A DNA stretch of 61,073 bases, from positions 1-61,073 of the forward strand of contig PEAR01000001.1 of assembly GCA_002753745.1 (NCBI GenBank), read 5' to 3'. The DNA is from Candidatus Omnitrophota bacterium. GTDB taxonomy: Bacteria > Omnitrophota > Gorgyraeia > Zapsychrales > Fredricksoniimonadaceae. The notes below the pieces were generated by a model. That model did not search any database. It worked only from the letters and a program-made list of their open reading frames with translations, and had not been told where the DNA came from. Within the stretch, counting starts at the first letter, position 1. Every line of letters begins with the position of its first letter. Below, piece after piece: positions 3,078-57,723 of the stretch. Both the position numbers and the translations under genes were made by a program.

Positions 3078-6000
3078 TTAAACCGCTGACAGTTCCGACG
3101 CTATTTTCAATTCAGATAAAACCGGCATGTTAAGCGGCGTCATAGGCATAATACTTCTGATTACCGGCTCAAGACCGCGAATATCGATCATCGCCGGATC
3201 CTGAAACTGAACCGGCAACGGAACGCCAGCACCATCGACCTTAATGTTGATCTTCAAATTCGAGCTATCCAGATCAATACCGCCAAGGGGCGTTTGTGCC
3301 GAGTCCGTGTTTGTCGGCGGCAACAAAAGATAGGGAAATAAATGCGGAAGAATGACTTCCCCGGCTCGACGAATCGCGATTGAATTGTAATTGCGATGAT
3401 TCCCGATTCCCGTGACATCACCTTGCGGCACAACCAGCACACCGGAAACGCTCTCATCACCGTCTTTGATATCCAGAATCGTTATATCCGCTCCCTCGTC
3501 CAACGGGTGCTCACCGCGTCTGATTCCTTCCGTGTTAACCCACGCGACCTTTGATTTGTAAGCATTCGCCTTGATCGACTGAATAACACGCCTTGCCTCC
3601 AGACCGTCTTCATCAACAAGAACATAATCAGCATCCTTGTCAAACGCCGATGAGCGCAAGAAGCCCTGGTCATCCGTGTTAACTGTCACGAACTCAACTC
3701 TTTCATTCCCAGAGAGATTAAAAAGATGCCCGTCACCCTCCTGAAACTCCTTCGTTAATCGCTCCAGATCAGATCCCTGCTTTGTCGCCACCACTATGCG
3801 GATCGGATCCCCATTCTCTTTTTTGGGCGTATCAAACACCCAATGCTTGAGGAGAATATTAACAGCGCTGGTAAAAGACGGCGTCGAGATCCCCTGATAC
3901 TCCTGACTAAACGCTCGACGGGCACCTGCTTCAGCCAACGCCAAAAGCAATTGCACCGTTGCACTGGCCGGACTTCCAAAACGTCCATAAGTCCGATACG
4001 ATCCTTGAGGTAAATACGGCCCCTTGTCCGGATTTCCAGCAACGCCATTCCAGCCAAATCCCGCCTTGAGATCATCCGGATCATCAGCGCGATAGGCATT
4101 GGACGGATTCCCGCCGCTAGCGACCAGTGACCGGTGATCGCCGCTCAACAACCCCCAAATAGCCGTGTGATGAATCAGCAATGTATGCGGATTGTATTTG
4201 GTGATTAATGTTGATTCATGGATCAGACGTGCTGCTTCCTTAATGCGTGCAGACGTAAACGGAACATATCCGCCGATATCAGCAATTCCTTTAAGAATAT
4301 CCGGCTCAACGTTGTATCCTTCTTTTTTTGCGCGCTTGATGACCGGATATTTGCGCAACGCGTAACCAGTCTTTCCGTCGACATTAGTCGTCGGCTGCAT
4401 AAAGATCGCATCGAGCTGATCGTAAGGAATCTTGTCGAACTTCCCATCGTATAGCTTCAGGATCTGAAAAATTGCCCCCAACTCCCGCAAGACATCTTTT
4501 GTGTCCTCAATACCCACGGCCCAACGGATGCCTCCACGCGTCACGCCGCCTTGCCGCAACTGTTCATCCGTCAGCCCTGACAGCGCCCCGTATCCTGGCA
4601 TCTGCATAAGATTACGAACATCCCCAAGGCTCACAGCATGTTCGATGGTCCTGAAATATCGCAGAAGCGCCATGAACGCCTTGGCCCGCTCTTCCGTCTC
4701 CAGATCAAAATAAATCATGTGCCCCGGATTATTCATCTGCCTTTGCGCAATACCATATTGCGGATGCGATTCATCCCCGGGATATCGGACGAATTTCACC
4801 TGCGGGTTCTTCTTCAGCCATTCAACATAAACCCGGGCGTTTTCCTGCTGCTTAAAGAATCTTTTCTCCAGCGTCGGTAAGCCATAACGAAGAAGTTTCT
4901 TCGCATCATCCTCATTAATCGGCTCGGTCCGAAGACCTTTCAATTCTTCAACAATCTCCTTCTTGGCAACCACAACAGCGCCAAAGACATTGCCGTCGCC
5001 GGAAAGCCCCTTGGTCACGACCTGCACAACAGCATCGATCCCATACTCCAGCGGCTGCTGCCCGAGTGATGTAGCGAATGAACCGTCAAAGATAATAAAC
5101 GCCTCCGGCGATTTTGAATTCCGAACCGTACGCACCACCCTTTCCATATCAACAACCGGCAGCGACGGATTCGCCGGTGTCTCAAAAATTACTGCAGCGG
5201 TATTTCTTGACAACTCCTCAACCAGCTGATTCTCAGGATCAGACACAATCCTGACCTTAAGGCCGTACTTTCGATACAGCTCCACATCGCCTTCCGTCCC
5301 GCCATAGGCAGGACGCACCAGAACGATTTCAGGCGTACGTCCGGGATATTTAAGCGCGAACTGTTTCAAGGCATACCGAAGCGGAAGATGAACACCAGCA
5401 ACACCGGACGCCACGCTAACGCCTGCATACTGCTCTGACAGCAAATTCTGTGTTTCCAGATCAGCAACTGCCCTCTCCACTTGCTCAACCACACTCCTGC
5501 CTTGGCGCTTATCATCAACAAGAGGTAAATCAGGCCCGGATCCGCTAACAACCGGCGATGTATTGACCGTGCGGCGCTCCGGAATAATAGAAGATGGCGA
5601 AACCCCTTCCGGCGTTGTTAAAACAATCCCCAAATCATCAGCAATCTCAACAGGAATAGCCTTTCTATCTTTCTTCTGCGGCAGCCGGATCTCATTAATA
5701 CCGACAACGGTTGCCCCAGCTGGGACATCTTTGGAGACCGTTGCGTTAGCGCCTATCTTGGCGCCATCACCAATAGTGACTGTTCCCACAATACTGGCTC
5801 CAGCACCCAGCAAAACACCATTACCAACAATCGGATGTCTTCTGCCATCTGCCGTGACTTTTCCATTCGACCCCAGCGTCACCCCATGAAGAAAATACAC
5901 ATCATCGCCGACAATCGCGGTCTCGCCGACAACAACACCAATTCCATGATCAATAACAACACCCTTACCAATTGTCGCTCCGGGATGAATATCCACACCA

Positions 6001-8312
6001 AAGGCAATCGAAACCCGGCTCTGAAATCGCAAAGCAAGTTCCTGTCGACCGTTCAACCACAGCCAATGCGCCACGCGATACGCCGCCAGCGCATGAAAAC
6101 CCTTAAAGTTTAAAAACGGCGTCGAAAGCTTGTCAGATGCCGGATCACGCTCAAGTACGGCAAGCAGATCGCGACGAATGGCATCAAGAATATCCGGGGA
6201 AGCACTCAACGCTTCTTTCACCGTTGTCCTGACATCCTCGGCGTCCATGTGTTCCGACGCCAATTTGTTTGCCAACAAATAAGAAATCGCCGACTCCAGA
6301 TCCGGTTGATCAAGAATCGTTTTCTTGAGGTACTCTGCAAGCTGCCGCTCTTTCTTCGCAATCGAATCGGCTTCCTCGTACAAACGGCTCCAGACCGGAT
6401 CAGAAGACACAGTCGTCCTGGGAGATGCTTTTAAGGATGATGTCCTTACGCCTGCTGGCGCACTCTTCTTCCGTACTTGCTGTGGCTTTTCCTTCTTCTC
6501 TGGTGTTCTCGAAGAAACAGCAACCTCCTTCTTCAGCGCATCCAACCGCTGCCACGCCTCCTGCGGATGAATAGGTGCAACCTGACGGGTATCCCGATGT
6601 TGCCGCAAATCCTTTGAGATGGTCTCATCAGAAACAACAATCAACCCCTGAATACCGTTTTGCTTTGCTCTCTCATCAGTTCTGCTAATTGCATCACTCT
6701 GTTCGACACGAGCTGCACTGAACGCAAGAAGCGTCTGGGGGCTTTTTACACCAGCAGTCCGAGAAACTTCATCAAAACGTTCTGACTTGGAAAACGGAAA
6801 AAACACAATCGCTGTCTGTTTAGATAACGCATCCTGCAAATCATCAAAATTTGTCACAATCCGTGCTTCATTCGGATTTTGTCTGGCGTACAGGACAAAC
6901 ACATTATCTGCGGGTGATTCCGGCGGAATATAAAATACAGCTTCGCCATTGCCTTGCTCAATCCCGGACCGCTCCTTGGCAAAATGGATCAAATTGGCAA
7001 CTGCCGCCAGCTTTGTTGAATAACTGACCCCGTCGAATTTTCCCTCTTCCCCCTGAAAATGGACTCGCGCCGTCAGCTGCTCAACAGCTCTCACTGTTTC
7101 ATCATTCAAATCTTTTCTGCGGGCCACGAGATCAGCATGTGTTTTCTCAATTGCCCTGACCAAGTCAGTATCAACAATCTCTCGTCCGGGCTTGGACAAG
7201 AACTCCGTTGCCGAACCCTGACTCGCATCCGATATAATCTCAGGCGCGACGCCTACCATGCCGCCGGAGAAATATTTTCTCGGCAGAGTCTCGTGCGTTA
7301 AAGGATCTTCTTCCTCCTTGATATAGTTGAACACGCCAACCTTAAACGCCTCCAGATACCTCTCGTAGATCTTATCCTTTGCCTTCGGGTCATCGACCTC
7401 AACACCAGCGACCTTGTTTTTATCCGTGTAGACTTGGTTAACAAGACTTGCCTTAAGCGCCTGTTTAAACCATGTCGCCAGGATCATGGCATTATAAATC
7501 TGACGCAGCGGAGCAAAATTCTCTCCCTCGTTCACTTCTTTCTCAATGATCGGCAGAATAATTTCCCGGACAGCATTGACCGTAAATTCCTTCTTCCCTT
7601 CAACGCCATCCGCTGAATCTGAAATCTGAACATCAGATGACAGCTCATGGCTGGCTTTCTCCGCCAGATAATCTTTCTCCAGCATGACCTTTAAATGACT
7701 CTTCACAAGAAACGCAGCGCCATCTTTCTGATAAACCTCTGCCTTGTCTGCCCGAACCCAAATCTTGTTAAATGTATCAACCGGAATATCAGTTGTGCCC
7801 AATTTATCGTAGGCTTGAGCATATACTTTCCGCCAAAAGCCTCTGCCCACATCCTCTTCGGGATACATCAATGATGCCGTAAACTGCTTGAGGACATAAT
7901 CCTGACCCAACAACTCCTGACCGGTACTTGTCTGGGCAAAGCTGTTGCCAATAATGCGATGCGCTTCATAGGGCGACAGATTGACCCACACATCCTTATT
8001 GGGGATTGTCAGCGACGCCAAAAAATGCCTGATAAGCCGACTGTATTCTTGCTTCTTTTGCGTGTCTGACAATGGACGGTCACCCTGATCAACGACAAAA
8101 TAGAAATGAAAGGGATTATGCTGATCCACCTTTAACCCGACAATCTGGGGAGGATTAAAGGCATTCGTTGGAGAAAGACGCACGCCGGGAACCGGTAGCG
8201 GCAGCACCACCTGCGCGTAACCGGATTGAACTGGTATTGCGCTCAACATGGCTGTGATAAGTCCAACAGCGATGAAACGGAAAATGGATGTCTTTTGAAT
8301 TTGATGCAACAT
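3078..8312 (-). CDS. 1744 aa signal-peptide protein: shared N-module + unknown region + serine O-acetyltransferase domain + Cys/Met-metabolism PLP domain + degenerate PLP-like region + shared GGIDL C-module
   Basis: Uninterrupted ORF with SD AGGAG 7 nt upstream. Signal peptide ends GYAQ. Domain evidence is given in the sub-features below. Confidence 0.9.
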   Translation of the reverse strand: MLHQIQKTSIFRFIAVGLITAMLSAIPVQSGYAQVVLPLPVPGVRLSPTNAFNPPQIVGLKVDQHNPFHFYFVVDQGDRPLSDTQKKQEYSRLIRHFLASLTIPNKDVWVNLSPYEAHRIIGNSFAQTSTGQELLGQDYVLKQFTASLMYPEEDVGRGFWRKVYAQAYDKLGTTDIPVDTFNKIWVRADKAEVYQKDGAAFLVKSHLKVMLEKDYLAEKASHELSSDVQISDSADGVEGKKEFTVNAVREIILPIIEKEVNEGENFAPLRQIYNAMILATWFKQALKASLVNQVYTDKNKVAGVEVDDPKAKDKIYERYLEAFKVGVFNYIKEEEDPLTHETLPRKYFSGGMVGVAPEIISDASQGSATEFLSKPGREIVDTDLVRAIEKTHADLVARRKDLNDETVRAVEQLTARVHFQGEEGKFDGVSYSTKLAAVANLIHFAKERSGIEQGNGEAVFYIPPESPADNVFVLYARQNPNEARIVTNFDDLQDALSKQTAIVFFPFSKSERFDEVSRTAGVKSPQTLLAFSAARVEQSDAISRTDERAKQNGIQGLIVVSDETISKDLRQHRDTRQVAPIHPQEAWQRLDALKKEVAVSSRTPEKKEKPQQVRKKSAPAGVRTSSLKASPRTTVSSDPVWSRLYEEADSIAKKERQLAEYLKKTILDQPDLESAISYLLANKLASEHMDAEDVRTTVKEALSASPDILDAIRRDLLAVLERDPASDKLSTPFLNFKGFHALAAYRVAHWLWLNGRQELALRFQSRVSIAFGVDIHPGATIGKGVVIDHGIGVVVGETAIVGDDVYFLHGVTLGSNGKVTADGRRHPIVGNGVLLGAGASIVGTVTIGDGAKIGANATVSKDVPAGATVVGINEIRLPQKKDRKAIPVEIADDLGIVLTTPEGVSPSSIIPERRTVNTSPVVSGSGPDLPLVDDKRQGRSVVEQVERAVADLETQNLLSEQYAGVSVASGVAGVHLPLRYALKQFALKYPGRTPEIVLVRPAYGGTEGDVELYRKYGLKVRIVSDPENQLVEELSRNTAAVIFETPANPSLPVVDMERVVRTVRNSKSPEAFIIFDGSFATSLGQQPLEYGIDAVVQVVTKGLSGDGNVFGAVVVAKKEIVEELKGLRTEPINEDDAKKLLRYGLPTLEKRFFKQQENARVYVEWLKKNPQVKFVRYPGDESHPQYGIAQRQMNNPGHMIYFDLETEERAKAFMALLRYFRTIEHAVSLGDVRNLMQMPGYGALSGLTDEQLRQGGVTRGGIRWAVGIEDTKDVLRELGAIFQILKLYDGKFDKIPYDQLDAIFMQPTTNVDGKTGYALRKYPVIKRAKKEGYNVEPDILKGIADIGGYVPFTSARIKEAARLIHESTLITKYNPHTLLIHHTAIWGLLSGDHRSLVASGGNPSNAYRADDPDDLKAGFGWNGVAGNPDKGPYLPQGSYRTYGRFGSPASATVQLLLALAEAGARRAFSQEYQGISTPSFTSAVNILLKHWVFDTPKKENGDPIRIVVATKQGSDLERLTKEFQEGDGHLFNLSGNERVEFVTVNTDDQGFLRSSAFDKDADYVLVDEDGLEARRVIQSIKANAYKSKVAWVNTEGIRRGEHPLDEGADITILDIKDGDESVSGVLVVPQGDVTGIGNHRNYNSIAIRRAGEVILPHLFPYLLLPPTNTDSAQTPLGGIDLDSSNLKINIKVDGAGVPLPVQFQDPAMIDIRGLEPVIRSIMPMTPLNMPVLSELKIASELSAV
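3081..3287 (-). other. shared C-module (GGIDL...DPAM...P.I..I.PMT)
   Basis: LGGIDLDSSNLKINIKVDGAGVPLPVQFQDPAMIDIRGLEPVIRSIMPMT aligns with the C-termini of the 1033 aa and 1415 aa proteins. Confidence 0.8.
4458..5465 (-). other. Cys/Met-metabolism PLP-dependent enzyme domain (CGS/OAH-sulfhydrylase family), aa ~950-1285
   Basis: VIFETPANPSLPVVD, IIFDGSFAT, a VTKGLSGDGNVFGAVVV candidate PLP-lysine motif, VRYPG..SHPQY..A.RQM, VSLGD..NL...P and IRWAVGIED. Confidence 0.7.
5697..6404 (-). other. serine O-acetyltransferase (CysE-like) domain, aa 637-872
   Basis: SATase N-terminal helical region (FLNFKGFHALAAYRVAHWLW..GR..LA). Left-handed beta-helix hexapeptide repeats (GVDIHPGATIGKGVVIDHGIGVVVGETAIVGDDVYFLHGVTLG...RHPIVGNGVLLGAGASIVG.VTIGDGAKIGANATV). 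Confidence 0.8.
7260..8210 (-). other. shared N-module (aa 35-351) of the giant protein
   Basis: Aligns by eye with the N-termini of the 1033 aa and 1415 aa proteins. Shared blocks: NPF.F.F..D.G, R.I..FLAS.T.P.KD.WVNLSPYE, GQ/RDLL.QDY.LKQ.TAS, FW.KVY, D.PVDTFNK.W, KEVNEG.NF..LRQ.Y, Y.EAFK.G..NYI, RKYFSGG. Confidence 0.85.
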
Positions 8313-8510: not shown

Positions 8511-9881
8511 CTACACATCTCTTTTCCTCTTCAGATAATTCAATAAATCAATTCTTGTGACAACACCGTAAAACTTGTCCTCATCCTGAATGATCGCTGT
8601 ATAACCTTTCTTCAAAACCGCAACAAGGCTCTTCAAATCTTCCCGCGGACTCAACACTTCCGGGTCGGTAGCCATGTAATGCGCGACTTTCTCTTCAAAC
8701 TTGTGTGTATCCAAATCTTCAAACGCCAAAAGAAGGTCGGATTCATCAATAATCCCAACAGCTTTTCCATGATCAATAACAGGAAGCTGCGAAATGTCAT
8801 ACAACTTCATTCGCGAATAAGCGGTTGCGACTGAATCTTCCGGGCGAACGGAGACAACGCTATTTGAACTGTACGTCCGGGTAATCAGATCCCTGAGATC
8901 CCCCTCTTCTTTCCGTTCCAAGAGCCCCTGATCCAGAAGCCAATGATCGTTGTAAACCTTGGACAAATATTTATTCCCACTGTCACAGACAAACGTCACA
9001 ATATTTTTGGGTGTCTTCTGTTCTTTAGCATAACGGATCGCAGCCCCGAGCAAAACGCCCGTCGATGAACCCGCCAGAATTCCTTCCTTGCGCAAGAGAT
9101 CACGCAAGATCAAAAAGGCCTCTTTATCAGAAATCGAATACGCCTTCTTTACCAAAGAAAAATCAGCCTGAGCCGGAATAAAATCTTCTCCTATGCCCTC
9201 GACCCGCCAGCTTCCGGCTGTGCCAAACTTTCCTGTCGTCACATGATCGACCAGCACGGAGCCTTCCGGGTCAGCCAAAACAAACTCGATCCCCGGATGC
9301 ACCTTCCTGAAATAATCCGTCAGCCCTCTGATCGTCCCGGCAGATCCAACACCGACAGAGATGGCATCCACCTTGTGATCCATCTGTTCCCAGATCTCAG
9401 GCCCTGTTGTCGTAACATGTGCCAGCGGATTAGCCGGGTTATTGAACTGATCTACAAAGAACGAATTCGGGATCTCCTTTGAGAGCCTGAGAGCATAGTC
9501 CTGATAATACTCCGGATGGCCCTTCTCGACGTCAGAACGCGTCATGACGATCTCGGCACCCATCGCCTTCAGGCAGGCTATTTTCTCCTGACTCATTTTG
9601 TCAGGGATGACTAGCAAAAGCCGGTAGCCTTTTCGTGCCGCGACCAGAGCCAGCCCAAGACCCGTATTCCCAGCCGTAGCTTCAATCAGCGTATAACCTT
9701 TCTTTATCTTACCCTCTCGCTCTGCCGCCTCGATCATGGACAAACCGATCCTGTCCTTGATGGCACCAGATGGGTTCAGGTTCTCAAGCTTGAGAAATAA
9801 CCGGCATACCCCGACGTCAAAACTTTTGACCTCAACAATAGGCGTGTGCCCGATCAGCTCAAGAATATCCTTGTAGATCAT
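8511..9881 (-). CDS. cystathionine beta-synthase / cysteine synthase family PLP enzyme with C-terminal CBS-domain pair
   Basis: PALP-fold motifs (NLNPSGAIKDR, EATAGNTG, GVGSAGT, SSTG). About 130 aa C-terminal tandem CBS region. Confidence 0.8.
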   Translation of the reverse strand: MIYKDILELIGHTPIVEVKSFDVGVCRLFLKLENLNPSGAIKDRIGLSMIEAAEREGKIKKGYTLIEATAGNTGLGLALVAARKGYRLLLVIPDKMSQEKIACLKAMGAEIVMTRSDVEKGHPEYYQDYALRLSKEIPNSFFVDQFNNPANPLAHVTTTGPEIWEQMDHKVDAISVGVGSAGTIRGLTDYFRKVHPGIEFVLADPEGSVLVDHVTTGKFGTAGSWRVEGIGEDFIPAQADFSLVKKAYSISDKEAFLILRDLLRKEGILAGSSTGVLLGAAIRYAKEQKTPKNIVTFVCDSGNKYLSKVYNDHWLLDQGLLERKEEGDLRDLITRTYSSNSVVSVRPEDSVATAYSRMKLYDISQLPVIDHGKAVGIIDESDLLLAFEDLDTHKFEEKVAHYMATDPEVLSPREDLKSLVAVLKKGYTAIIQDEDKFYGVVTRIDLLNYLKRKRDV

Positions 9882-11191
9882 GCAGCCTTTCCTACTGACT
9901 TCTCAAAAGCCTGTCCGAGGTCCCACAGAAGATCCTCAATATCTTCCGTTCCAACAGATAAGCGGATCTGTTCCGGCTTGACCCCTGCCAAACGCTGTTC
10001 TGCCTCCGTCAACTGTCCATGAGTCACGGTTGCCGGATGCACGATGAGCGATTTTGAATCTCCGACATTAGCAAGAAACGAGAATATCTTTACCGATTCA
10101 ATAAACTTCTTGGCTCGCTCCAGTCCACCCTTGACACCGAAGGTCAAGATAGATCCCGGCCCTTTAGGCAAATACTTCTTGGCCAAAACATAATGCGGAC
10201 TGCTCTTCAATCCCGGATAATTAACCCAGGCCACATCAGGATGACTCTCCAGAAACTCAGCGACACGCTGGGCATTGGCAACCGCTCTTTGCAGACGGAA
10301 AGAAAGCGTCTCCAAGCCCTGCAGGAACAAAAACGCATTAAACGGACTCATGCATGCGCCAAAATCACGAAGATAGTGCAAGCGAACTTTGATAATGTAG
10401 GCGATATTGCCAAGCCCCGGGTAATTGCCCCACTTATCCCAATGGACAAAACCGCTGTACGCTTGGTCCGGTGTCGTGAAATCCGGAAACTTGCCGCTCG
10501 CCCAGTTGAAATTCCCACCGTCGACAATCAATCCGCCGATACTGGTGCCATGCCCGCCGATATATTTGGTCGCCGAATGCACAACGATGTTGGCGCCATA
10601 ATCAAACGGACGAAAAAGAAACGGCGTCCCAAAAGTGTTATCAACAATAAGCGGAATGCCGTTCGCGGCCGCAATCCTGGCCACAGCCTCAAAATCGATC
10701 ACATTAATGTCAGGGTTGCCGATGGTCTCAACAAAAATAGCGCGTGTTCGCTGATTGATCGCCTTCCTGAAATTCTCCGGATCTGCCGGGTCAACCAAAA
10801 CAGTCTTCACGCCATGTTTGGGCAGCGTGTTGACAAAAAGATTGAACGAACCGCCATACAGCGTTTTGGCCGCGACGATCTCCTCCCCGGTATGTGTGAT
10901 GTTCAAGATCGAATACGCGGTCGCCGCCGAGCCTGACGCCACCGACAAGGCCCCGCTCCCGCCTTCCAGCGCGGCAATCCGGTTTTCCAGAACCTCGTTG
11001 GTCGGGTTCGTGATCCGGGAATAATCGAAACCGAATTCCTCAACGGAACTGATCGCCTTGGCCTGGGCAAAATTCTTGAATACAAATGATGTCGTCTGAT
11101 AAATAGGCACCGCCCGGGATCCTGTTGCCGGATCGGGCACCTGGCCCGCGTGGAGCTGTAATGTATCAAACCCTAATTTTCTTTCACTCAT
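9878..11191 (-). CDS. metY: O-acetylhomoserine/O-acetylserine sulfhydrylase (paralog 1)
   Basis: [40 protein letters not shown] (PLP lysine), [13 protein letters not shown]. Confidence 0.9.
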
Positions 11192-11763
11192 ACTCTTTCT
11201 CCATAATGTGATGAGCCCGCAAAAGCGACCTCGGGTTGGATCTGATACGCATCCAACGATTCATCCAGATCGACCTGCAACGCACCATTAAACACATTGT
11301 TGACGATCATAAGCGCCCCGAAGACCGTCAGATCAACAATCTGCTCAGGACCTAAGAATTCCTCCAATTTCTTAAAAAGCGTATCGGTCACGCGATTCGG
11401 ATTGGCAGCCAATTGTTTTCCGTAAGCAATGATCGTCTGATCACGCTCATCCAGTTTTAAAGCCCTGGGATCCTCTCCGCCCTTGATGATGGCCCGATTC
11501 ATAAAAGTTGCGCAAAGCGTGCACGCATTTTCTCTCGAGATCGCATCACAAAAAAGGATAGTCCGGCGATCTCCCAAGACCGGCTTGACCTTGGCGTAAA
11601 GGGAATACCATTCAAGCACGGCACGCGACGCTATCGGTGAATGCAGCAGAGTGGCTTTCATATTCGTAACAACTCCGTGCTCTTTGACCACCTTGTCGTA
11701 CTCCGCCTTAATCTCCGGCGAAGCACCTTCATATCGAATCAGAGGAATCCGTCCCATTAACAT
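11188..11763 (-). CDS. carboxymuconolactone decarboxylase (AhpD-like) family protein
   Basis: 191 aa with a CTLC redox motif in the AhpD-like context (ENACTLCATFM). Confidence 0.6.
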   Translation of the reverse strand: MLMGRIPLIRYEGASPEIKAEYDKVVKEHGVVTNMKATLLHSPIASRAVLEWYSLYAKVKPVLGDRRTILFCDAISRENACTLCATFMNRAIIKGGEDPRALKLDERDQTIIAYGKQLAANPNRVTDTLFKKLEEFLGPEQIVDLTVFGALMIVNNVFNGALQVDLDESLDAYQIQPEVAFAGSSHYGERV

Positions 11764-11778
11764 CTCTCCTTGTTCTTG

Positions 11779-13143
11779 TTAATCAATTCTTATCGCTTCC
11801 GTAACAGCTTCCTTGACACTCCGGGCGATGTGATCAATATCCCGCTCGCTGATAACTAACGGAGGCGCAAGACAGATCACATCATCGAGAACGCGCGTCA
11901 AAACCCCTCGCGCCAAAAGCTCCTGACGCACGCGTTTGGCCACCCCCAAGTCCGATGAAAAGCGCTCCTTGGTCTTTTTATTAGCGACAAACTCGACCCC
12001 CACAAGAAGCCCCAGACCACGGACCTCCCCGATATGCGGATGCTTTTCAAGTGGCTTCAAGCCTCTAAGCAAACGACGCCCCAGTTTCTCTGACCTTTTT
12101 ACGAGACGCTCTTTCTCAAGGATACGCAAGTTAGTCAATGCCACCGCACAGCCTACCGGATGGGCTGACGCCGTATACCCATGCCACCAACGCTTCCCGG
12201 ACTCAACAGAATCCAATGTCTTTTTGATCTCTTTCGACACGCCGATTCCGCCGAGCGGAAAATAACCGCTCGTGATCCCCTTGGCAAACTGAACAATGTC
12301 CGGCTGAACACCCCAATGCTCGAGCGCAAACCAGCGGCCAGTCCGGCCAAACCCCGTGATCACTTCATCACTGATCAAAAGAACGTTGTACTTGTCGCAG
12401 ATCTTTCTGATACGCGGAAAATAATCGTCCTGGGGAACAAGAATGCCCCCGCCCCCGCCCTGAACCGGCTCCGCGATAAAGGCCGCAACCGTTTCTGGGC
12501 CTTCACGAAGGATCGCCTCCTCAAGCAAGTCGGCAGCTGCTACTCCCGGTGAAACATCTTTTCTTGTGGTCGTAAAACGATACGGATTCGGCGATTCAAT
12601 GTGCAAGAATCCCGGCAGCCTCGGCCCAAACCCTTGAGAAAACTCCTCAACGCCCGTTGCTGATGCCGCACCAACTGTTGAGCCGTGATAACTGAGCTTG
12701 CGCGCAATGATCTTCTGTTTCCCGGGCTTACCCCTAGCCTGCCAATAGAACCTCGCCGTCCTGATAGAGGTATCCGTGGCATCCGAACCACCGAGCGTGA
12801 AATAAAACGCCTCAATATTCGGATAGATCAGCCGCTTGAGTGTCTTCACCAACTCAACCGCCGGTTCATTGGTAGCGCCGGCATAAGCTGTCGCGAATGC
12901 CAGTTGTTTCAGCTGACGATGCGCAGCAGCGGCCAGCTCCTTGCGGCCGTGGCCAAGGTAAACGTTCCACATGCTGCTAAGTCCGTCGATAAATGTCTGG
13001 CCTTCGATATTCGTCAGCCTGACACCCTTTCCCGAGACCCAAACCTGCGGATCCTGATGCTCGCTCGGATGATGCTGCGGATGGATCAGATGACGAAGGT
13101 CGCTTTGAACCAATGCTTTCTTTAGGTTTTTCTTATGACTCAC
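11779..13143 (-). CDS. class-III (omega) aminotransferase
   Basis: LISDEVITGFGRTGRWFA, FAKGITSGYFPLGG (PLP lysine), SYHG, EPVQGGGG. Confidence 0.85.
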   Translation of the reverse strand: MSHKKNLKKALVQSDLRHLIHPQHHPSEHQDPQVWVSGKGVRLTNIEGQTFIDGLSSMWNVYLGHGRKELAAAAHRQLKQLAFATAYAGATNEPAVELVKTLKRLIYPNIEAFYFTLGGSDATDTSIRTARFYWQARGKPGKQKIIARKLSYHGSTVGAASATGVEEFSQGFGPRLPGFLHIESPNPYRFTTTRKDVSPGVAAADLLEEAILREGPETVAAFIAEPVQGGGGGILVPQDDYFPRIRKICDKYNVLLISDEVITGFGRTGRWFALEHWGVQPDIVQFAKGITSGYFPLGGIGVSKEIKKTLDSVESGKRWWHGYTASAHPVGCAVALTNLRILEKERLVKRSEKLGRRLLRGLKPLEKHPHIGEVRGLGLLVGVEFVANKKTKERFSSDLGVAKRVRQELLARGVLTRVLDDVICLAPPLVISERDIDHIARSVKEAVTEAIRID

Positions 13144-13161
13144 AACTGTGCCTTTTCTTTC

Positions 13162-14601
13162 TTATATTCCGTCACCAAAACGTGCGTTAATCGCTCGGGA
13201 ATCTTCACGGATATCCTCAACAACATTAGGCTGTGCTTTATGAATGAAGGCGATCCAAGCAACACCCGCGAGCCAGATCCCAAGGAAGATGTACGGCAAA
13301 ATGTTATACGGCGCCGGAGGAACAGGATAAAGATTCCCCAAAATAGCCAAGCCTAGTGTAAAAACAGCCAACCCCGATATAACCAGATGCTGAATCTTCA
13401 ATTCACCTCGACGTTTGAGATACACCGGTGCTGCAATGGAAATAATGATATACGTCACAATAAACCCAAGCGTCGCAATCGTCCCCACCCAGCCGTAAAT
13501 ATCAAAATCACCCGTACCATTGATCGAAAGGATCACCGCAGGAATCACTGCCAAAATTGAGGAAATTGTGACTGCGATATGCGGCGTTTCATTCTTATGG
13601 TGAGCATCACCGGCGGAAGAATGAAATAATCCATGACGGCTCATTAAAAACAAAACACGCGCACCGGCATTAATACTTGCCAAGACACAGGCAAAGAAAC
13701 TGATGATCGCGCCAATATCAATGAGCAGACCAAGAGATGAAAGACCGGCCTTGTCCGCCAGAACACTAAGAGGCGCGCTGCTTTTATCCAATGTTTCAGC
13801 GTTCCCATAAAACCCAATAACCTGAGCATAAGAAGAAACCACAAATAACGCACCAACGATCAAGGCGCTGCGAACAATAGCTCTCGGAATACTCTGCAAT
13901 GGATTCTTGGCCTCTGAACCAAGTGCGGCTGCACTTTCAAACCCGACGAAGCTGAAGATCGCAAGCACCAAACCGCCACGTAATCCATCCAGCCCGGCAC
14001 CTTTGAGCGTCAACTGAGCCCAATCCAATTTCCATCCATACCGATAGAGTGTCACGCCCACCAGAAGAACAATGAGAGAAACCGAAAAGAACTCCAAAGC
14101 CAGAGATACACGCGTCGAAAGCTTAATGTCCTTATACGCGATATACCACGCAATCAACACGCTGAGCGCGATCAAAATAGCTGCCGGGACTTTAAAATGA
14201 AACACGCTATCAAGGAAGACGTTGGTATAGTTAGAAACACCGGATGTCACCGCAGAGGCGCAACCGATATACGCAATAAGCAATGCCCAACCGGTCACAG
14301 AGCCCCAGAACGGCCCCAGACCCGTAATAGCATAAGAGTAGAACGAACCCGGAGATGCCGAACGTCGTGCAAACTGATTAATACTAGCCGCCACCAACAA
14401 GATGCTCACAGTGGCGAACAAATATGCCAGCCATGTTGCCCCACCGGATAACGCGAATACCAGCGGAATAACAATTGTAGGCGTTGCTGTTGGCGCGATA
14501 TTGGCGATCGATTGACCCAACGTTTCCAGTGGTGTCAATGTTTCGGACTTCAAGCCGTAGGAATGGCCCCCGCGATTTACTTCTTTTGATTTGGCGCTCA
14601 T
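13162..14601 (-). CDS. APC-family amino acid permease
   Basis: About 12 hydrophobic segments. Start set at ATG 14601 (SD AGGAAG). The ORF is open to 14640. Confidence 0.8.
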   Translation of the reverse strand: MSAKSKEVNRGGHSYGLKSETLTPLETLGQSIANIAPTATPTIVIPLVFALSGGATWLAYLFATVSILLVAASINQFARRSASPGSFYSYAITGLGPFWGSVTGWALLIAYIGCASAVTSGVSNYTNVFLDSVFHFKVPAAILIALSVLIAWYIAYKDIKLSTRVSLALEFFSVSLIVLLVGVTLYRYGWKLDWAQLTLKGAGLDGLRGGLVLAIFSFVGFESAAALGSEAKNPLQSIPRAIVRSALIVGALFVVSSYAQVIGFYGNAETLDKSSAPLSVLADKAGLSSLGLLIDIGAIISFFACVLASINAGARVLFLMSRHGLFHSSAGDAHHKNETPHIAVTISSILAVIPAVILSINGTGDFDIYGWVGTIATLGFIVTYIIISIAAPVYLKRRGELKIQHLVISGLAVFTLGLAILGNLYPVPPAPYNILPYIFLGIWLAGVAWIAFIHKAQPNVVEDIREDSRAINARFGDGI

Positions 14602-14644
14602 ACGCTTCTTCCTTTCATTGTTTTTTATATCGAAATCCACTTCG

Positions 14645-14790
14645 GCCCCGGAAGCCCTTTAGGCTTCCAGGAGGCCTTCGGGATGTTTTTGAAAGAATTC
14701 TTTCAAAAACAAAAAGGCCCAAAACAAGTCCGGGATTAACCGGAAATATTTTGGGCCTCCAGATGTCTGGTGAGCCTGTCTACTGATTGC
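14645..14790 (-). promoter_or_regulatory. conserved leader/attenuator RNA, copy 1 (5' UTR of the permease operon)
   Basis: GACAGGCUCACCAGACAUCUGGAGGCCCAAAAUAUUUCCGGUUAAUCCCGGACUUGUUUUGGGCCUUUUUGUUUUU, then the palindromic hairpin UUUGAAAGAAUUCUUUCAAA and the nested hairpin GGAAGCCUAAAGGGCUUCC. Lies between a consensus promoter and the CDS. Confidence 0.6.
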
Positions 14791-14830
14791 ACCCGGAGCG
14801 TAAAGAATACCGCCCCTTAATTCAGCAAAT

Positions 14831-14885
14831 CACTACTATCCCAGTGGGGATAGTGGAAATATAACACATCAATAACGTTTGTCAA
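14831..14885 (-). promoter_or_regulatory. sigma70-like promoter plus inverted-repeat operator
   Basis: Minus strand: TTGACA (14880-14885), 16 nt spacer, TATATT (14858-14863), then the inverted repeat CTATCCC-N4-GGGATAG (14836-14853) 4 nt downstream of the -10. Confidence 0.6.
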
Positions 14886-14957
14886 GTTTATTTTTCAATT
14901 ATCCCCGAGATAACGGAACATTCCGTCGGGAAGAATCCATGTATGCATCGCGCAATT

Positions 14958-15641: not shown

Positions 15642-15732
15642 ATGACCCCCTCTTAATAAATTTTTCTATTAAATTTTTTAACTCCTAGACACCTCGACAG
15701 CTATACAAGCTGACGGACGGATGGGAGCTTCC

Positions 15733-17601: not shown

Positions 17602-17682
17602 ATTCCAACCTCTTTCTTAAACGGTTTTATCCCGCACCCAGACTAAAGTCGGGCGGGATTCCGCTCCACTATTCGTGGAGCT

Positions 17683-53397: not shown

Positions 53398-56300
53398 TTA
53401 TCTAAGAAACAGATCCAGATCCTGGATCTGTTGAATACTGATAATGCGCGGCGTGAACCCGGGAGAATTTTGAAGCTGCTGGAACATGGCCGGGTCAAGA
53501 TCGAACAATATCTCCTCTCCAGAAGACCCACGGGTTTCAAGGTCCATATCGCGGCTGTTGAGGTCAATACCACCAGTATAATCAAACGGTGCCGCAGGAT
53601 CTCCGAATTGCCCCGTTCCCGAACTGGCCGGGTCCCCTGCACCTTTTAATTTCACTCCATTCTTTGACCCTGCATGAATCTTGTCAACCTCGGCCAAACC
53701 TTTTTCTTTTAATCTTTCATACTCGTAATGAAGATCTGTAACTTCAAAACCCAAACCGCCGCGAAGGCCCACGATCTCCTTGGCGAGCGCCATGATCATC
53801 GGAACATCCTGTTTCTCAATAGCCCCGTTCATCTGATCTCTTATCTTTACAAACATGGAAACCAGTTGCGTCCGTAAAATGATACGGGCCAACTGCTCCT
53901 TTAATTGCGGATCCCGAGTTTGCGGCAGTAACAGCATGGCTGACTTCATGACGGCGGCATAATGCTCGGGAAAAGTTGCCGCATGAAATGCCTCCACTAC
54001 CTCTTTTTCATACCGGTCCCACGCCTCTTGGGAATGGCGCTCCCGGCCTGAATTGGCTTTATCCCATGCCTGATACACACTAAAGAACCAGTCTTCAAAA
54101 CGCTCTGCACTTAAGAACTCTTCCGCCAGCCAATACGAACGTGCCGCGTCAACCGCGCGTTCGTAAGCTTTATCGAAAATGGCCGCCTCAAACGGCGAGT
54201 CTTTTAATCTTGATCTAATGAACGTTTCTGATCTCTCACGGGACTCAACCAACGCAATGATGGCCCCAGCAGCCGGAGTGCTTGGCTTAAAACCCGTTGT
54301 AACCCGGGCGCGTTCGCTGCTTTTAAGTTTTTCGGCCCCAAACATCTCTTCAGGAAGGTCTTTGACCGCATTTACAAGCCAATCTCTAATCTGGTTGCTC
54401 GGCATGGAAACCAGAGCACTGACCTGCACATCCGATAACGACTTTAATATGCTGCCTACCTTTGGCCCAAACCCTTCTCGCCGCGTCTGCACTGTCGGCA
54501 GGGTATAGTCGCGAAAAAAATGATGCAGCCGGATCACAGCGCTTTCCCGCTTAAACAGGTGAAGAAGCTCATCTCTCTCATCAGACGTCAGTTCGTGCGG
54601 TGCGTTCAGGGCCTTAACGACCAGCGGCAGGTCCCAGTTCGAAGACTCCACGGGGCGTTCAATGTTACCCCGCTTAAAACCGGTCGCTTTTTCTGTCTCA
54701 TCCATGGCTGACAGCAGCCCCCGTTCATGCTGATACCCCCTGTAAACAACAATCTTGGCGCCAGGATAAGCCCTCATCAAGAAACTGCTCTGACGGGCCA
54801 GAGCTTCATCGCGGATCTCATTTGATATTTTCATATATTTGATCGAATCAAGATGCGCTGTAAAATACGCTTCATCATCTCGCTTTTCCAGAGCTTCACT
54901 CGCTCGCTCGCTCGCTTGAAAAGCCCGTTTGGCCCAAACCGCACTATGAGCAGGCGCCATTTCATTAACCGCCATGATCCCCGGATGAGACGTATATGTA
55001 TTGAGCGCCTGTCCGGCGACTTCCGCGGCATAGGGGTTATGGAGTAAATATCTAGCTTCGTGCAGGGCGGTCGGCAAGCCGCTGACAACCGTAAACTTAG
55101 CATCACTGCTGCCCGTCCTGTCATCTGTCCGCTTCTGGACCAGATCTGTTACCAGATCCGGGGATGTCAAAAGCGCCGGATTAATTTCATCCAGGATCCC
55201 GAGATCAGGGGCAGATTCGTACAGCAGAATAACCTGACTATTCTCTAAACGAACCTTGGCCAGATAGTCAGCAAAGCGAAGCTGTTCTTCCGGATAATGC
55301 GAAACAAAATAATAATCGATCGAACTCGAACCCGGCGGCGACTGAAGAAATGACCGGAAAGGAACGGAGCGTTCAAGAATATAGCTGTGAAAGTCGTCCA
55401 CCGTCTTGATCCGACCTTCCTTGACAGCCTCCCTGGCATCCGACGATAGCGCACGCAGGTCATCATCAGCAGGCACAGTCCGGCCATTGGCGAAAAGCAT
55501 CCGTCTGATAAAATCAGGGTCCAGCTTTGCCGCCATCGTCCCGATGGGCGCGGGCTTGACCGTTGGTTCAAATGTAAACGTTGTGCCGGGAAGCTTGTCC
55601 ATAGACCGAATAACGAGCGTCAGTTCCTTGTCCAGACCCTCATCTCTGCGATTGCCTTGCTCGCTTGTTACATATCCAAACCCATCCACTCCTTTAAAAA
55701 TGATTATTGGCTCAGCTGTAATAACTCCTTGTGTATCCTGATAAAAGGATCCAGTAAACTGAATACCCTCCACCGTTGAAGACACCCGGAACAGATGATT
55801 CACCCTGTCGATCTCTGGATCCAATAGAAATGGCCTGGCCGTCGACGAAGGTGATTCTCCAAAATAGGAGGGATGCACGCTGGACATCGTTCGGGAGCGG
55901 TTCCGCGGCAAAGGGATACCATAAAACCTGACCGCGCCTTGCTCCTGCACAACCGTGATCGCCAACCCCTCTTTGTTATCTTTTCTCTCGACAATGCCGC
56001 AGGCCTGGATCTGACCGTACGTCTGCAGCTTCACCCCGGCCGCTTCCAGCGCCTCGGCAGCATATAACCGCAGGTAGGTCACGTTCAGCGCGTCTTCCGC
56101 GACCATAAAGCCATAATCAAGCGGCGCCTCTTCCGAAAAAAGACTCCTGATAACCAATGCCGGATAATTGCGAAATTTAAACCAGGCACTATCCTGGTCT
56201 TTTCCCGAACTTAAAATTTGCCCTGCAGCTTCGGCCAGTTGATGCTTAGCATGACTGATATTCTCCGCTGTCACAGGCATGTCCGCCGGCAGGGTCGCAG

Positions 56301-57618
56301 CATATTCCGGCACCGTCAACCAAATCCTCCCGGCGACGGCCAAACCTGTAACAATACCCGATAACACCGCCAATTTCTTCCCTGTAACCATAGCGGCATT
56401 GGTTCTCAGATCAAATCCCGGCATTCCCGGGGCGCCGCTCCCGGCTCCCTTGCCTGGAAGCAGCTTCGACGGCTGCGAAAAAACCAGCACAGCCGCCACA
56501 TCCAGCATTTGACCCTTGTTAAGCGTCATGACTCCGTCGCGAGTGCTAACGACGCTCATCGCCTGGTTGAGTGCCAGCGAACATCCCCCGGAAAAGTATC
56601 TTCGCGGGATCGTTTCAGCATTTAAAACATCTTGTTCCTCCTTAATGTAGTTATAGGCTCCTTTCTTGAATGCCTCGACGTAACGCTGCCAAATCTGTTC
56701 GGCTTCTTTGGGATCATTAACATGAACTCCCAAAATCTTGTTCTGATCAACATAACCCCGGCTCAACAAACTACGTGACATCTTCTTCTTGAACCATGCC
56801 GCAAGAATAACCGATTGATAAACCTGGCGCAGCTGGACAAAACCCTTCCCCTCATTGACTTCTTTTTCAAGAATGGGCACAATGATCTCACGGAGAACCG
56901 CCGCAGTTATCCCGTCTTGAGATGCCGCCGGTTGTTCCAGGGCACGCGGCCCCCCTTCCCCTGCCGCATTACTCTCAAGAGCCTTGTAATCCGTATCCAG
57001 CATGACCTTGAGCCGGCTTTCCACAACATACGCCGTTCCCGCACCAGCATTCTCATAGACCACAGCCCTGTCAGGAATAATCCAGACTTTATTGAACATA
57101 TCGACCGGCACATCTGTTGTTCCATATTTCTCAAATGCGGCCTTGTATACTTTTGCCCAAAACTTCTTTCCGGACTCACCCTCCGGATAAGTCACAGATG
57201 AAGTGATCTGCTTAAGCAGATAATCCTGTGCCAAAAGATCGCGCCCCATTTCCGTCCGGCCGAAAGCCTCCGGCACAATGCGGTCTTTTTCATACGGGGA
57301 GAGGTTAACCCAAAGATCTTTCTCGGGAACGGTAAGCGAGGTGAGGAAATATTTGATAAGACGGGTGGATTCGACCTGAAACGAATCTCCCGAACGGGCA
57401 TCTCCCCGATCGAGTATAAAATTAAAACGGAAGGGATCATCGCGATACACTTTGATGCCCTTAAGAACCGGAGGATTAAACGGCTGACTTAAGGGCACCA
57501 TGATTCCGGGCGCAGATAGATCATGCACCCCCTGGGCATATGCAGGAGCAAAACTTGCGCTCACGAACGCCGCCAATGTTATGCCGCCAATAATCTGTTT
57601 AAAAAAGATCCGATCCAT
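53398..57618 (-). CDS. ~1406 aa signal-peptide protein: shared N-module + ~1000 aa uncharacterised region + shared GGIDL C-module
   Basis: The ORF is open to GTG 57645. The ATG at 57618 gives MDRIFFKQIIGGITLAAFVSASFAPAYAQ. The N- and C-modules align with the other two family members. Confidence 0.9.
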   Translation of the reverse strand: MDRIFFKQIIGGITLAAFVSASFAPAYAQGVHDLSAPGIMVPLSQPFNPPVLKGIKVYRDDPFRFNFILDRGDARSGDSFQVESTRLIKYFLTSLTVPEKDLWVNLSPYEKDRIVPEAFGRTEMGRDLLAQDYLLKQITSSVTYPEGESGKKFWAKVYKAAFEKYGTTDVPVDMFNKVWIIPDRAVVYENAGAGTAYVVESRLKVMLDTDYKALESNAAGEGGPRALEQPAASQDGITAAVLREIIVPILEKEVNEGKGFVQLRQVYQSVILAAWFKKKMSRSLLSRGYVDQNKILGVHVNDPKEAEQIWQRYVEAFKKGAYNYIKEEQDVLNAETIPRRYFSGGCSLALNQAMSVVSTRDGVMTLNKGQMLDVAAVLVFSQPSKLLPGKGAGSGAPGMPGFDLRTNAAMVTGKKLAVLSGIVTGLAVAGRIWLTVPEYAATLPADMPVTAENISHAKHQLAEAAGQILSSGKDQDSAWFKFRNYPALVIRSLFSEEAPLDYGFMVAEDALNVTYLRLYAAEALEAAGVKLQTYGQIQACGIVERKDNKEGLAITVVQEQGAVRFYGIPLPRNRSRTMSSVHPSYFGESPSSTARPFLLDPEIDRVNHLFRVSSTVEGIQFTGSFYQDTQGVITAEPIIIFKGVDGFGYVTSEQGNRRDEGLDKELTLVIRSMDKLPGTTFTFEPTVKPAPIGTMAAKLDPDFIRRMLFANGRTVPADDDLRALSSDAREAVKEGRIKTVDDFHSYILERSVPFRSFLQSPPGSSSIDYYFVSHYPEEQLRFADYLAKVRLENSQVILLYESAPDLGILDEINPALLTSPDLVTDLVQKRTDDRTGSSDAKFTVVSGLPTALHEARYLLHNPYAAEVAGQALNTYTSHPGIMAVNEMAPAHSAVWAKRAFQASERASEALEKRDDEAYFTAHLDSIKYMKISNEIRDEALARQSSFLMRAYPGAKIVVYRGYQHERGLLSAMDETEKATGFKRGNIERPVESSNWDLPLVVKALNAPHELTSDERDELLHLFKRESAVIRLHHFFRDYTLPTVQTRREGFGPKVGSILKSLSDVQVSALVSMPSNQIRDWLVNAVKDLPEEMFGAEKLKSSERARVTTGFKPSTPAAGAIIALVESRERSETFIRSRLKDSPFEAAIFDKAYERAVDAARSYWLAEEFLSAERFEDWFFSVYQAWDKANSGRERHSQEAWDRYEKEVVEAFHAATFPEHYAAVMKSAMLLLPQTRDPQLKEQLARIILRTQLVSMFVKIRDQMNGAIEKQDVPMIMALAKEIVGLRGGLGFEVTDLHYEYERLKEKGLAEVDKIHAGSKNGVKLKGAGDPASSGTGQFGDPAAPFDYTGGIDLNSRDMDLETRGSSGEEILFDLDPAMFQQLQNSPGFTPRIISIQQIQDLDLFLR
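53401..53577 (-). other. shared C-module
   Basis: TGGIDLNSRDMDLETRGSSGEEILFDLDPAMFQQLQNSPGFTPRIISIQ. Confidence 0.8.
56584..57531 (-). other. shared N-module
   Basis: ESTRLIKYFLTSLTVPEKDLWVNLSPYEKDRIVPEAFGRTEMGRDLLAQDYLLKQITSS...RRYFSGG. Confidence 0.85.
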
Positions 57619-57723
57619 ACCTTGCCCTTTTGCATTCTTAGACACAAAGCCACACCGCTATAGGAAGTATACACTGTAAAATACTGGAATACTATGATGG
57701 GTGATTTATGGAGAACGGGCAGG

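Follow-up and report, generated by a model that had tools for sequence, protein, structure and literature searches.

The DNA analysed in this study (the window) is a 61,073-nucleotide stretch of a Candidatus Omnitrophota genome (assembly GCA_002753745.1, contig PEAR01000001.1). It encodes three proteins, here called A, B and C, in which a conserved N-terminal module (N-module, about 310 amino acids, aa) and a conserved C-terminal module (C-module, about 60 aa) enclose unrelated central regions (cargo). We found that the three proteins belong to a very large undescribed family of Omnitrophota, in which constant ends around swappable cargo are the rule. The two modules may form a carrier that is exported by the Sec pathway and takes cytoplasm-type domains out of the cell's interior; we favour this reading tentatively and stop short of calling it probable. 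The open reading frames (ORFs) of A, B and C were located exactly where an earlier note on this DNA had placed them, all on the minus strand (ORF listing of the window). Their parts are listed below; PLP stands for pyridoxal phosphate, AF2 for AlphaFold2, and an arrow marks the putative cleavage site.

3078-8312, minus strand: ORF of protein A, 1744 aa
8214..8312, minus strand: signal-peptide-like N-terminus of A, aa 1-33, ...SGYA↓Q (sequence and family-wide heuristics)
7260..8213, minus strand: N-module of A, aa 34-351, terminal RKYFSGG (BLASTP E 1e-97 to 1e-101 against B and C; Pfam and NCBIfam negative)
3285..7259, minus strand: cargo of A, aa 352-1676, including two stretches without family assignment (Pfam/NCBIfam)
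5691-6395, minus strand: SATase_N/Hexapep (serine acetyltransferase) of A, aa 640-874 (Pfam/NCBIfam; PDB phmmer E 9e-72)
4476-5507, minus strand: Cys_Met_Meta_PP (Cys/Met PLP enzyme) of A, aa 936-1279 (Pfam/NCBIfam; PDB phmmer E 6e-45)
3081..3284, minus strand: C-module of A, aa 1677-1744, variant GGIDL...GAGVPLPVQFQDPAM...PVIRSIMP (independent profile E 5e-11; BLASTP against B E 1e-4)
40581-43682, minus strand: ORF of protein B, 1033 aa
43584..43682, minus strand: signal-peptide-like N-terminus of B, aa 1-33, ...ISYA↓Q (sequence and family-wide heuristics)
42663..43583, minus strand: N-module of B, aa 34-340, followed by a linker (DAAQ/DPAQ/LDASM) to about nt 42555 (BLASTP; AF2 model)
40794..42662, minus strand: cargo of B, aa 341-963, mostly without family assignment (Pfam; no PDB relative outside the protease)
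42006-42461, minus strand: trypsin-like serine protease of B, aa 408-559 (Pfam Trypsin_2 E 1e-8)
40584..40793, minus strand: C-module of B, aa 964-1033, GGIDL...DPTMIEQLQNASGLTPVIIDIRPM...FLGL (independent profile E 2e-26; BLASTP)
53398-57645, minus strand: ORF of protein C, 1415 aa
57535..57645, minus strand: signal-peptide-like N-terminus of C, aa 1-37, ...PAYA↓Q (sequence)
56584..57534, minus strand: N-module of C, aa 38-354, followed by the junction motifs NQAM and NAAM (BLASTP)
53575..56583, minus strand: cargo of C, aa 355-1357, about 1000 aa, no detectable family (Pfam/NCBIfam/PADLOC/PDB negative)
53401..53574, minus strand: C-module of C, aa 1358-1415 (independent profile E 9e-18)

Constant ends and variable cargo

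The shared N-module, which had previously been aligned by eye, proved to be real. N-modules of A and B were 47% identical over 354 aa (E 8e-101), those of A and C 48% over 349 aa (E 4e-97), and those of B and C 59% over 343 aa (E 1e-129) (BLASTP). The shared GGIDL C-module is likewise real. Pairwise identity was 44% over 54 aa between B and C (E 3e-9) and 37% over 62 aa between A and B (E 1e-4), and the comparison of A with C was not significant by BLASTP; a profile of 89 homologues, built with the window proteins excluded, matched B (E 2e-26), C (E 9e-18) and A (E 5e-11), with Z set to 1e6. The tail consensus given in the earlier note stood in part. GGIDL is present in all three proteins, but B has DPTM in place of DPAM, and A, whose tail is a variant (LGGIDL followed by GAGVPLPVQFQDPAM), is without LQN. 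The middles of A, B and C showed no mutual similarity, and their proposed identities were correct: a serine acetyltransferase (CysE) and a PLP enzyme in A, a trypsin-like protease in B, and no family match in C. No fourth family copy was detected within the window (tblastn). Protein C probably starts at the ATG of Met10 instead of the listed GTG.

A search with the N-module of B returned 1,382 protein clusters, and all of the named ones were a "hypothetical protein" of Candidatus Omnitrophota/Omnitrophica metagenome-assembled genomes (MAGs); since this search shows no protein longer than about 1.75 times the query, the clusters mainly represent fragments or small members. At least 587 N-module loci were detected in a genome scan with one genome per GTDB species, and one MAG carries at least nine family genes. 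All 80 loci that were fetched came from Omnitrophota-type MAGs, a few of which are labelled "uncultured Planctomycetales" or "Ca. Elulimicrobium". Of 1.84 billion cluster representatives scored with the C-module profile, 6,545 passed a threshold of E 1e-3 and 3,416 one of 1e-10; for almost every one of the 150 top-ranking proteins, the aligned region stopped no more than about 10 aa short of the C-terminus. The shortest family ORF in the 80 loci had 736 aa and the longest more than 3,080 aa, and the ORFs often stood in tandem arrays. Members beyond 3,000 aa that run off the fetched locus were observed in L047 (7809-16958), L061, L065, L068, L070, L072, L079 and L026; the cargo of these large members includes WD40 propellers, a kinase and AAA_5.

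About 63 N-module ORFs in the 80 loci had an intact 3' end, and 55 of them also encoded the C-module, at most 34 residues before the stop. C-modules without an N-module belonged to split genes directly downstream of N-only ORFs (L004, L035, L046) or were cut by the edge of the contig or locus; the two modules are thus nearly always found together. Among 100 full-length proteins, cargo similarity was detected in 33 of 4,950 pairs, and the constant ends around swappable cargo first suggested by the three window proteins therefore hold across the family. N- and C-module identities were correlated (Spearman 0.54), also for pairs with unrelated cargo, and 208 pairs combined an N-module identity above 75% with unrelated cargo. 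Protein B and the product of gene 1 of locus L001 may serve as an example. Up to residue 375, signal peptide included, their identity is 72%; the similarity then breaks off until the C-module (58% identity), and the 620-aa protease cargo of B is unrelated to the 1,600-aa PPDK-like cargo of the other protein. A natural cargo-less member of 438 aa (P0003), in which 15 residues join RKYFSGG to GGIDL, is encoded in tandem with a 1,110-aa family member.

The N-module ends in [RK]xYFSGG, often extended to GG[VIT]DL, and the C-module starts with GGIDL. Both boundaries are enriched in a short motif, [DN]xA[MQ]. Of 255 proteins, 183 had it in the first 60 residues past YFSGG, frequently as two or three copies. 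The 25 residues ahead of the C-module GGIDL contained it in 137 of 273, with a peak 7-11 residues upstream; its background in cargo is about 2%, against 50-72% at the boundaries. DPAM is a recurrence of this motif inside the C-module. In the window the motif is represented by DAAQ, DPAQ and LDASM in B, by NQAM and NAAM in C, and by DSAQ 7 aa ahead of GGIDL in A; examples lie at 42609-42641, 56557-56568 and 56389-56400. The similarity between close N-modules ends at the last junction motif, which indicates that the cassette boundary lies at these motifs. Their role may be that of hinges where the inserted domain begins and ends, or they may be sites of proteolytic release. Use of the DxAM Met as an internal translation start, yielding cytoplasmic isoforms, was also considered. 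It was judged unlikely because the motif is also found ahead of and inside the C-module, frequently with Gln at the Met position, and because the fixed Asp and Ala codons form no Shine-Dalgarno sequence.

Tabulation of the central domains, by Pfam on 55 cargo regions and by precomputed and extra scans, revealed many unrelated, cytoplasm-type domains. Repeats (HEAT, TPR, WD40) were found together with enzymes, including several methyltransferase types, phosphoribosyltransferase, PPDK_N, radical SAM, HATPase_c, glutamate and alanine dehydrogenases, histidine phosphatase, GNAT, PP2C, HAD and sugar transferase. Further cargo comprised SNF2 and ResIII helicases, AAA_5, and the kinase or toxin-like domains protein kinase, Zeta toxin and GDSL lipase. 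Most of these depend on ATP, S-adenosylmethionine (SAM), NAD, phosphoribosyl pyrophosphate, acetyl-CoA or Fe-S clusters. The serine acetyltransferase (SAT) of A aligns end to end with solved enzymes of this type (E 9e-72) and keeps the DIHP and DH motifs, and its PLP domain matches methionine gamma-lyases (E 6e-45), with the Schiff-base lysine motif TK preserved (PDB phmmer). With these catalytic motifs intact, the cargo of A looks catalytically competent. No PDB relatives were found for the cargo of C or for the second half of the cargo of B.

N-terminal signals, module structure and Streptomyces homologues

The N-termini of A, B and C each consist of positive charges, a hydrophobic stretch and ...YA↓Q. 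In a heuristic survey of 128 family N-termini, the n-region was net positive in 119 and the uncharged hydrophobic run had a median length of 13 aa. A conserved ...A↓Q site lies 4-7 residues upstream of an invariant LPxPG, with Gln at +1 in 93 of 106 and V, S or A (or P) at -3. No charges were seen for about 20 aa beyond the hydrophobic run, and there was no second transmembrane (TM) segment. By heuristic count the N-termini have the positive n-region, the 7-20 aa core and the small residues at -3 and -1 of Sec substrates (signal peptidase I). Family-wide, these features fit cleavable Sec signal peptides. Taken together, the charge pattern, the A↓Q site and the missing second TM segment predict translocation of everything downstream.

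The earlier note recognised neither end as a named domain, and the libraries searched here bear this out. No Pfam-A or NCBIfam match was found on the N- or C-module at E up to 0.1, all matches in A, B and C lying within cargo. PADLOC gave no match on either module; in the cargo, the protease domain of B weakly resembles the protease domains of LmuA and RT-Protease. A phage search was negative, and PDB sequence-profile searches with the N-module and the C-module returned no relatives. P0003 had no family match over its modules, and neither did the Streptomyces homologues described below over their N-module body. Foldseek comparison of the predicted structures of the N-module and P0003 with PDB and BFVD yielded no match with an E-value of 1e-3 or below, and weak matches to ClyA-type toxins, PX domains and V-ATPase subunits were discarded as noise (TM-score below 0.2). 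An origin of the C-module by duplication of the N-module tail was also considered and was rejected, with an hhalign probability of 2% and only SGG and GGIDL aligned. Both modules are new by sequence and by fold with respect to the libraries searched. A literature search by motif and family, including Omnitrophota papers, found no description of the family in the portions of text available.

The N-module was modelled with AF2 from a 119-sequence alignment as a mixed alpha/beta structure with two beta-hairpins and about eight helices (pLDDT 79, pTM 0.75). The cargo-less P0003, modelled from a 50-sequence alignment of proteins with both modules, was predicted as one compact fold (pLDDT 77, pTM 0.78), whose C-module reached a pLDDT of about 80 though largely of non-regular structure. 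The model is compatible with the conserved hydrophobic PVIIxIxP segment of the C-module packing on the N-module. No membrane-spanning or beta-barrel element was predicted in either module.

Six Streptomyces giant plasmids gave matches to the N-module (tblastn against plasmids, E as low as 5e-30), with 27-30% identity and a coverage of 67-84%. We inspected five of the proteins that they encode, of 759-829 aa (L083, 6771-9092; L084, 3696-5975; L085, 3798-6179; L086, 3687-6137; L087, 3606-6092; e.g., WP_121549542.1, WP_251091514.1 and WP_266737726.1); four carry the annotation "hypothetical", and the fifth comes from a record without annotation. They consist of a signal peptide, a variable domain of about 350 aa, GG[IV]DF, a homologous body, [YFV]GGVD[LF], a Pro/Thr-rich linker and an anchor. 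The body shares WVNLxP..E.DRI, GR.LL.AD..LK, FW, W[IV]xP, LRRVY, W and GGVD[LF] with the N-module, and the Streptomyces proteins are true but remote homologues of it. The anchor is LAxTG with a TM helix and RRRR in two of the five, which we take to be the class-E sortase signal of Actinobacteria, or a TM helix with an Arg-rich tail. Such sortase or membrane anchors place the N-module outside the cytoplasm; in this second phylum the body is thus an envelope-anchored, extracytoplasmic domain adjoined by swappable domains and framed by GGxD[LF]. As in P0003, the body runs on to the next GGVD[LF] without intervening cargo; this supports YFSGG...GGIDL as a single site, and is suggestive of cargo insertion there in the Omnitrophota proteins. 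The Streptomyces N-terminal domains are of three unrelated types without a Pfam match. By visual inspection, two of them resemble deaminases in having HxE...PCxxC, and the third is similar to a PD-(D/E)xK nuclease. In L084 a gene of the PrsW family of intramembrane proteases lies just upstream of the homologue.

Proposed function and rival explanations

In the proposed carrier, the signal peptide would be cleaved after ...A, leaving Gln as the mature N-terminus. The N- and C-modules would be two parts of one envelope-associated unit, with cargo inserted between the YFSGG end and the GGIDL start, and this unit would move cytoplasm-type domains across the inner membrane. The [DN]xA[MQ] and GG[IV]DL motifs are candidate hinge or proteolytic-release sites, and new members would arise by cargo replacement between the conserved ends. 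Omnitrophota are widespread, uncultured, mostly ultra-small and thought to be host-dependent. Candidate destinations are the periplasm, the cell surface, and a host or prey cell; because most cargo needs ATP, SAM, acetyl-CoA, NAD or Fe-S clusters, the cytoplasm of a host or prey, or a host-fed compartment, would be a workable place. A more doubtful step beyond this is that the two modules are the address tag of a previously unknown Omnitrophota sorting or delivery route, which would export cytoplasm-type enzymes with cofactor needs by the hundreds to thousands, either as effectors to prey or host or to a metabolically active extracytoplasmic compartment. The sole precedent for such a compartment, to our knowledge, is the intermembrane space of the archaeon Ignicoccus.

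The genomic setting of A bears on its role. A closes a 24-kb co-oriented Cys/Met cluster (8511..32818, minus strand; Pfam) that includes PALP+CBS, three Cys_Met PLP enzymes, PALP, MetX, MetW, PdxJ, a NifS-like gene, ThiF, a ThiI-like gene, a methionine ABC importer, two permeases and DUF3034. On a metagenome contig (L082, 4795-22972), an A-type orthologue with N-module, C-module and a SAT/PLP cargo 52% identical to that of A lies in the middle of the same Cys/Met genes in rearranged order, with importer and envelope genes beside it. The cluster shared by the two Omnitrophota genomes also includes a GAPDH-like gene. Signal peptides are present only in A, the NlpA binding protein and DUF3034, and the cluster enzymes have none. 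No stand-alone cysE was found in the cluster in the window or in L082, and the sole SAT is the A-type cargo. The orthologue in the same cluster shows that the cargo of A is genuinely linked to sulfur amino-acid metabolism, and the setting fits a nutritional or metabolic role better than a weapon. A would then be a nutritional member of the family, an exported fusion of SAT and PLP-lyase linked genetically to genes of sulfur amino-acid uptake and assimilation, and would act together with the importers of its cluster. Of the evidence gathered, this linkage speaks most strongly against a pure weapon reading and most strongly for a role of the proteins in the cytoplasm.

Such a role was considered in the form of a membrane-tethered scaffold on the cytoplasmic side, or of targeting to an internal compartment, with the hydrophobic helix as an anchor and the cargo serving the cell's own metabolism. 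The cargo requires cytoplasmic cofactors, and A and its orthologue supply the only SAT seen within a cluster of signal-peptide-less enzymes. However, the features of the N-termini predict translocation, the LAxTG of the Streptomyces homologues works only outside the membrane, and no shell or compartment genes were found near the family genes in the 80 loci; we consider this explanation unlikely, though it is the most serious of the rivals. It is rather unlikely that the modules are anchored in the outer envelope for surface display or adhesion, with cargo, including degenerate enzyme folds, acting as host-binding surfaces that are never released. Many cargo modules are indeed repeat or binding modules (HEAT, TPR, WD40), the Streptomyces homologues are wall-anchored, and Omnitrophota have been reported as host-dependent nanobacteria with large surface proteins (PMC10066038; bioRxiv 10.1101/2023.11.21.568195). 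Against display, the catalytic motifs of the SAT and PLP domains are intact, the motifs placed symmetrically around the cargo look more like processing or hinge sites, and membrane-spanning or beta-barrel elements were predicted in neither module.

A classical polymorphic toxin system, in which the N-module serves trafficking, the cargo is a toxin and immunity genes protect kin, appears improbable. No small downstream gene recurs, the C-terminus is constant and not a variable toxin tip, most cargo consists of HEAT/TPR/WD40 repeats, methyltransferases, dehydrogenases and biosynthetic enzymes, and the A type is conserved in a metabolic cluster. Features that do recall such systems are the toxin-like cargo of some members (Zeta toxin, trypsin-like protease, GDSL lipase, kinases), the common tandem arrays, the replacement of cargo between conserved ends, and HxE...PCxxC in two of the three Streptomyces N-terminal types, seen by eye and without a Pfam match. 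The polymorphic effector, secretion or sorting interpretation of the earlier note is therefore upheld only in part: Sec-like N-termini and the Streptomyces anchors agree with it, but the constant C-terminus, the mostly non-toxin cargo and the missing neighbour gene do not. Conserved adjacent secretion or sorting genes, which that note had in view, were not found; the most frequent neighbour family occurred in 7 of the 80 loci (neighbour clustering), and the family genes thus have no dedicated partner beside them for secretion, sorting or immunity. Similarity by chance, or an error of assembly or annotation, is a practically negligible explanation with E-values down to 1e-129 and thousands of independent homologues in many assemblies.

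Several points weigh against the exported carrier. We infer export, cleavage and delivery from heuristic signal-peptide features, and docking of the C-module on the N-module from a single AF2 model. The C-module profile scored weakly on the Streptomyces proteins, with 2-5 bits at the GGxD[LF] motifs only, and the co-divergence of N- and C-modules could be simple co-inheritance. Fe-S and radical SAM cargo cannot mature after Sec export in a normal periplasm. Conservation of an acetyl-CoA-dependent SAT among signal-peptide-less enzymes argues for a role in the cell's own cytoplasm, and a secretion or sorting gene is not conserved near the family genes in the 80 loci.

The combination of a constant targeting part with swappable cargo has precedents in type IX secretion system (T9SS) cargo, two-partner secretion (TPS)/CdiA, MARTX and MafB/LXG proteins, but every tested defining feature of these systems fails in the family described here. 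T9SS cargo resembles it in having a Sec signal and a small conserved domain (about 80 aa in T9SS) at the extreme C-terminus of unrelated exported enzymes. A mature N-terminal Gln is also frequent in Bacteroidota (the "Q-rule"). The family differs in its obligatory second module of about 310 aa and in its cytoplasm-type cargo; no NCBIfam match to the T9SS C-terminal domain (Por_Secre_tail/type A, type B), models of which we take to be included in NCBIfam, was found in the last 100 aa of A, B and C, and no T9SS genes or recurrent neighbours were found near family loci (the window and 8-10 kb flanks). TPS/CdiA proteins also form large polymorphic families with a signal peptide, a conserved N-terminal domain (about 250-300 aa in TPS) and variable regions. 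The TPS N-terminal domain is recognised by an export partner. However, the N-module is predicted by AF2 as a helix-rich mixed alpha/beta fold and not as a beta-helix, the TPS domain (Pfam Haemagg_act) was not matched, and the C-terminus is conserved and not a variable toxin tip. No adjacent TpsB (Omp85/POTRA) gene was found; no neighbour family occurs in more than 7 of 80 loci, and neighbours in the window are metabolic or regulatory.

In MARTX toxins, conserved ends bracket variable effectors, which act in the cytoplasm of another cell after proteolytic release at short linker motifs. MARTX proteins use a type I secretion system and have long glycine-rich A/B/C repeats as ends, a CPD protease and no Sec signal, unlike the present family; no RTX or CPD profile matched A, B or C (Pfam, NCBIfam). 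Polymorphic toxins (MafB/DUF1020, LXG, Rhs) share with it a constant trafficking module, swappable payload, tandem paralogues and cassette replacement, but carry the payload at the extreme C-terminus together with an immunity gene, whereas here the payload is internal, mostly non-toxin and without a conserved partner. The C-terminus is occupied by the C-module and not by a variable toxin in the 55 of about 63 complete proteins, and no downstream ORF family recurs in the 80 loci as an immunity gene would, a test that cargo-specific immunity genes would escape. Sortase, exosortase and rhombosortase signals were not seen, the Omnitrophota C-module being without a TM helix or basic tail. Nor do the modules, as folded units of 310 and 60 aa, resemble encapsulin or microcompartment targeting signals, and no shell family recurs nearby. 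The Streptomyces homologues are like the Omnitrophota proteins in their signal peptide and in the fusion of an N-module body to variable domains; they differ in that the variable domain is N-terminal of the body, no C-module follows beyond GGVD[LF], and LAxTG or TM anchors are present.

The giant proteins of Omnitrophota ("Archaeovorins" and relatives) come from the same phylum and have signal peptides on exported proteins, and some members of the present family exceed 3,000 aa. Methyltransferase, HATPase_c, GNAT, HAD, radical SAM, PPDK_N, AAA_5, HEAT and TPR domains are common to both, and the giant-protein studies note the puzzling combination of signal peptides with "cytoplasmic" metabolic domains (bioRxiv 10.1101/2023.11.21.568195; 10.64898/2026.06.07.730766). 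The giant proteins differ in their size (10-150 kaa), many TM helices, and flanking genes for type II secretion or Tad. No description of the module pair was found in the accessible parts of bioRxiv 10.1101/2023.11.21.568195, 10.64898/2026.06.07.730766 and PMC10066038. The present family offers a tractable form of this giant-protein paradox, with normal-sized proteins, thousands of cargo variants, two constant modules with sharp limits, short motifs at the boundaries and a cargo-less member (438 aa). Should the modules act as a tag for export or delivery, the effector repertoire of the phylum could be defined directly from sequence and a new sorting route would be at hand. Delivery to a host or prey would mean a phylum-wide effector system with proteolytic release at the DxAM and GGIDL sites, and the compartment case would mean that the cell's own metabolism, e.g., the SAT step of cysteine synthesis, proceeds partly outside the cytoplasmic membrane. 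If the modules are not an export tag, cytoplasm-type enzymes such as the conserved SAT are placed somewhere unexpected. The family merits a Pfam-style definition and could serve as a natural scaffold for arbitrary cargo.

Other genes of the window

B is flanked by a Schlafen/AlbA-HTH gene on one side and by a response regulator and two actin-like Volactin genes on the other. The protein encoded directly downstream of B (39112-40506, minus strand) combines Schlafen/AlbA_2, HATPase_c_4 and a winged HTH. An architecture of Schlafen/AlbA_2 with HATPase and HTH occurs in putative defence or regulatory proteins. The two tandem Volactin paralogues (PF25216, E 6e-74 and 5e-77; 43919-46913) lie beside the response regulator, immediately upstream of B. 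Volactin has been described in archaea, and its presence in Omnitrophota was unexpected. C is convergent with genes for pyruvate dehydrogenase E1, E2 and E3.

Between the Cys/Met cluster and B, a large serine recombinase (34620-36353, plus strand; Resolvase, Recombinase, Zn_ribbon_recom) overlaps the 3' end of the tmRNA (36288-36699, minus strand), which is adjoined by SmpB (36822-37379); the region has the classic layout of an ssrA-integrated island. The interval from 32.8 to 34.6 kb is poor in GC and lacks ORFs of at least 150 aa. A 164-aa ORF at 1101-1595 (minus strand), without a Pfam match, has an extremely Met-rich N-terminal part (MKSEMKMKQMMTMGRNMMGMPSMAPAGMPMGTMDMMMIP...) and may encode a metal (copper)-binding or periplasmic Met-rich protein. 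At 58155-59525 (minus strand), one ORF encodes a fusion of a Maf-like nucleotide pyrophosphatase domain (aa 3-187) with an M48 peptidase domain (aa 251-433). All 2-kb bins of the window have a negative GC skew, and the minus strand carries most of the genes, a pattern consistent with one replichore read against the leading strand.

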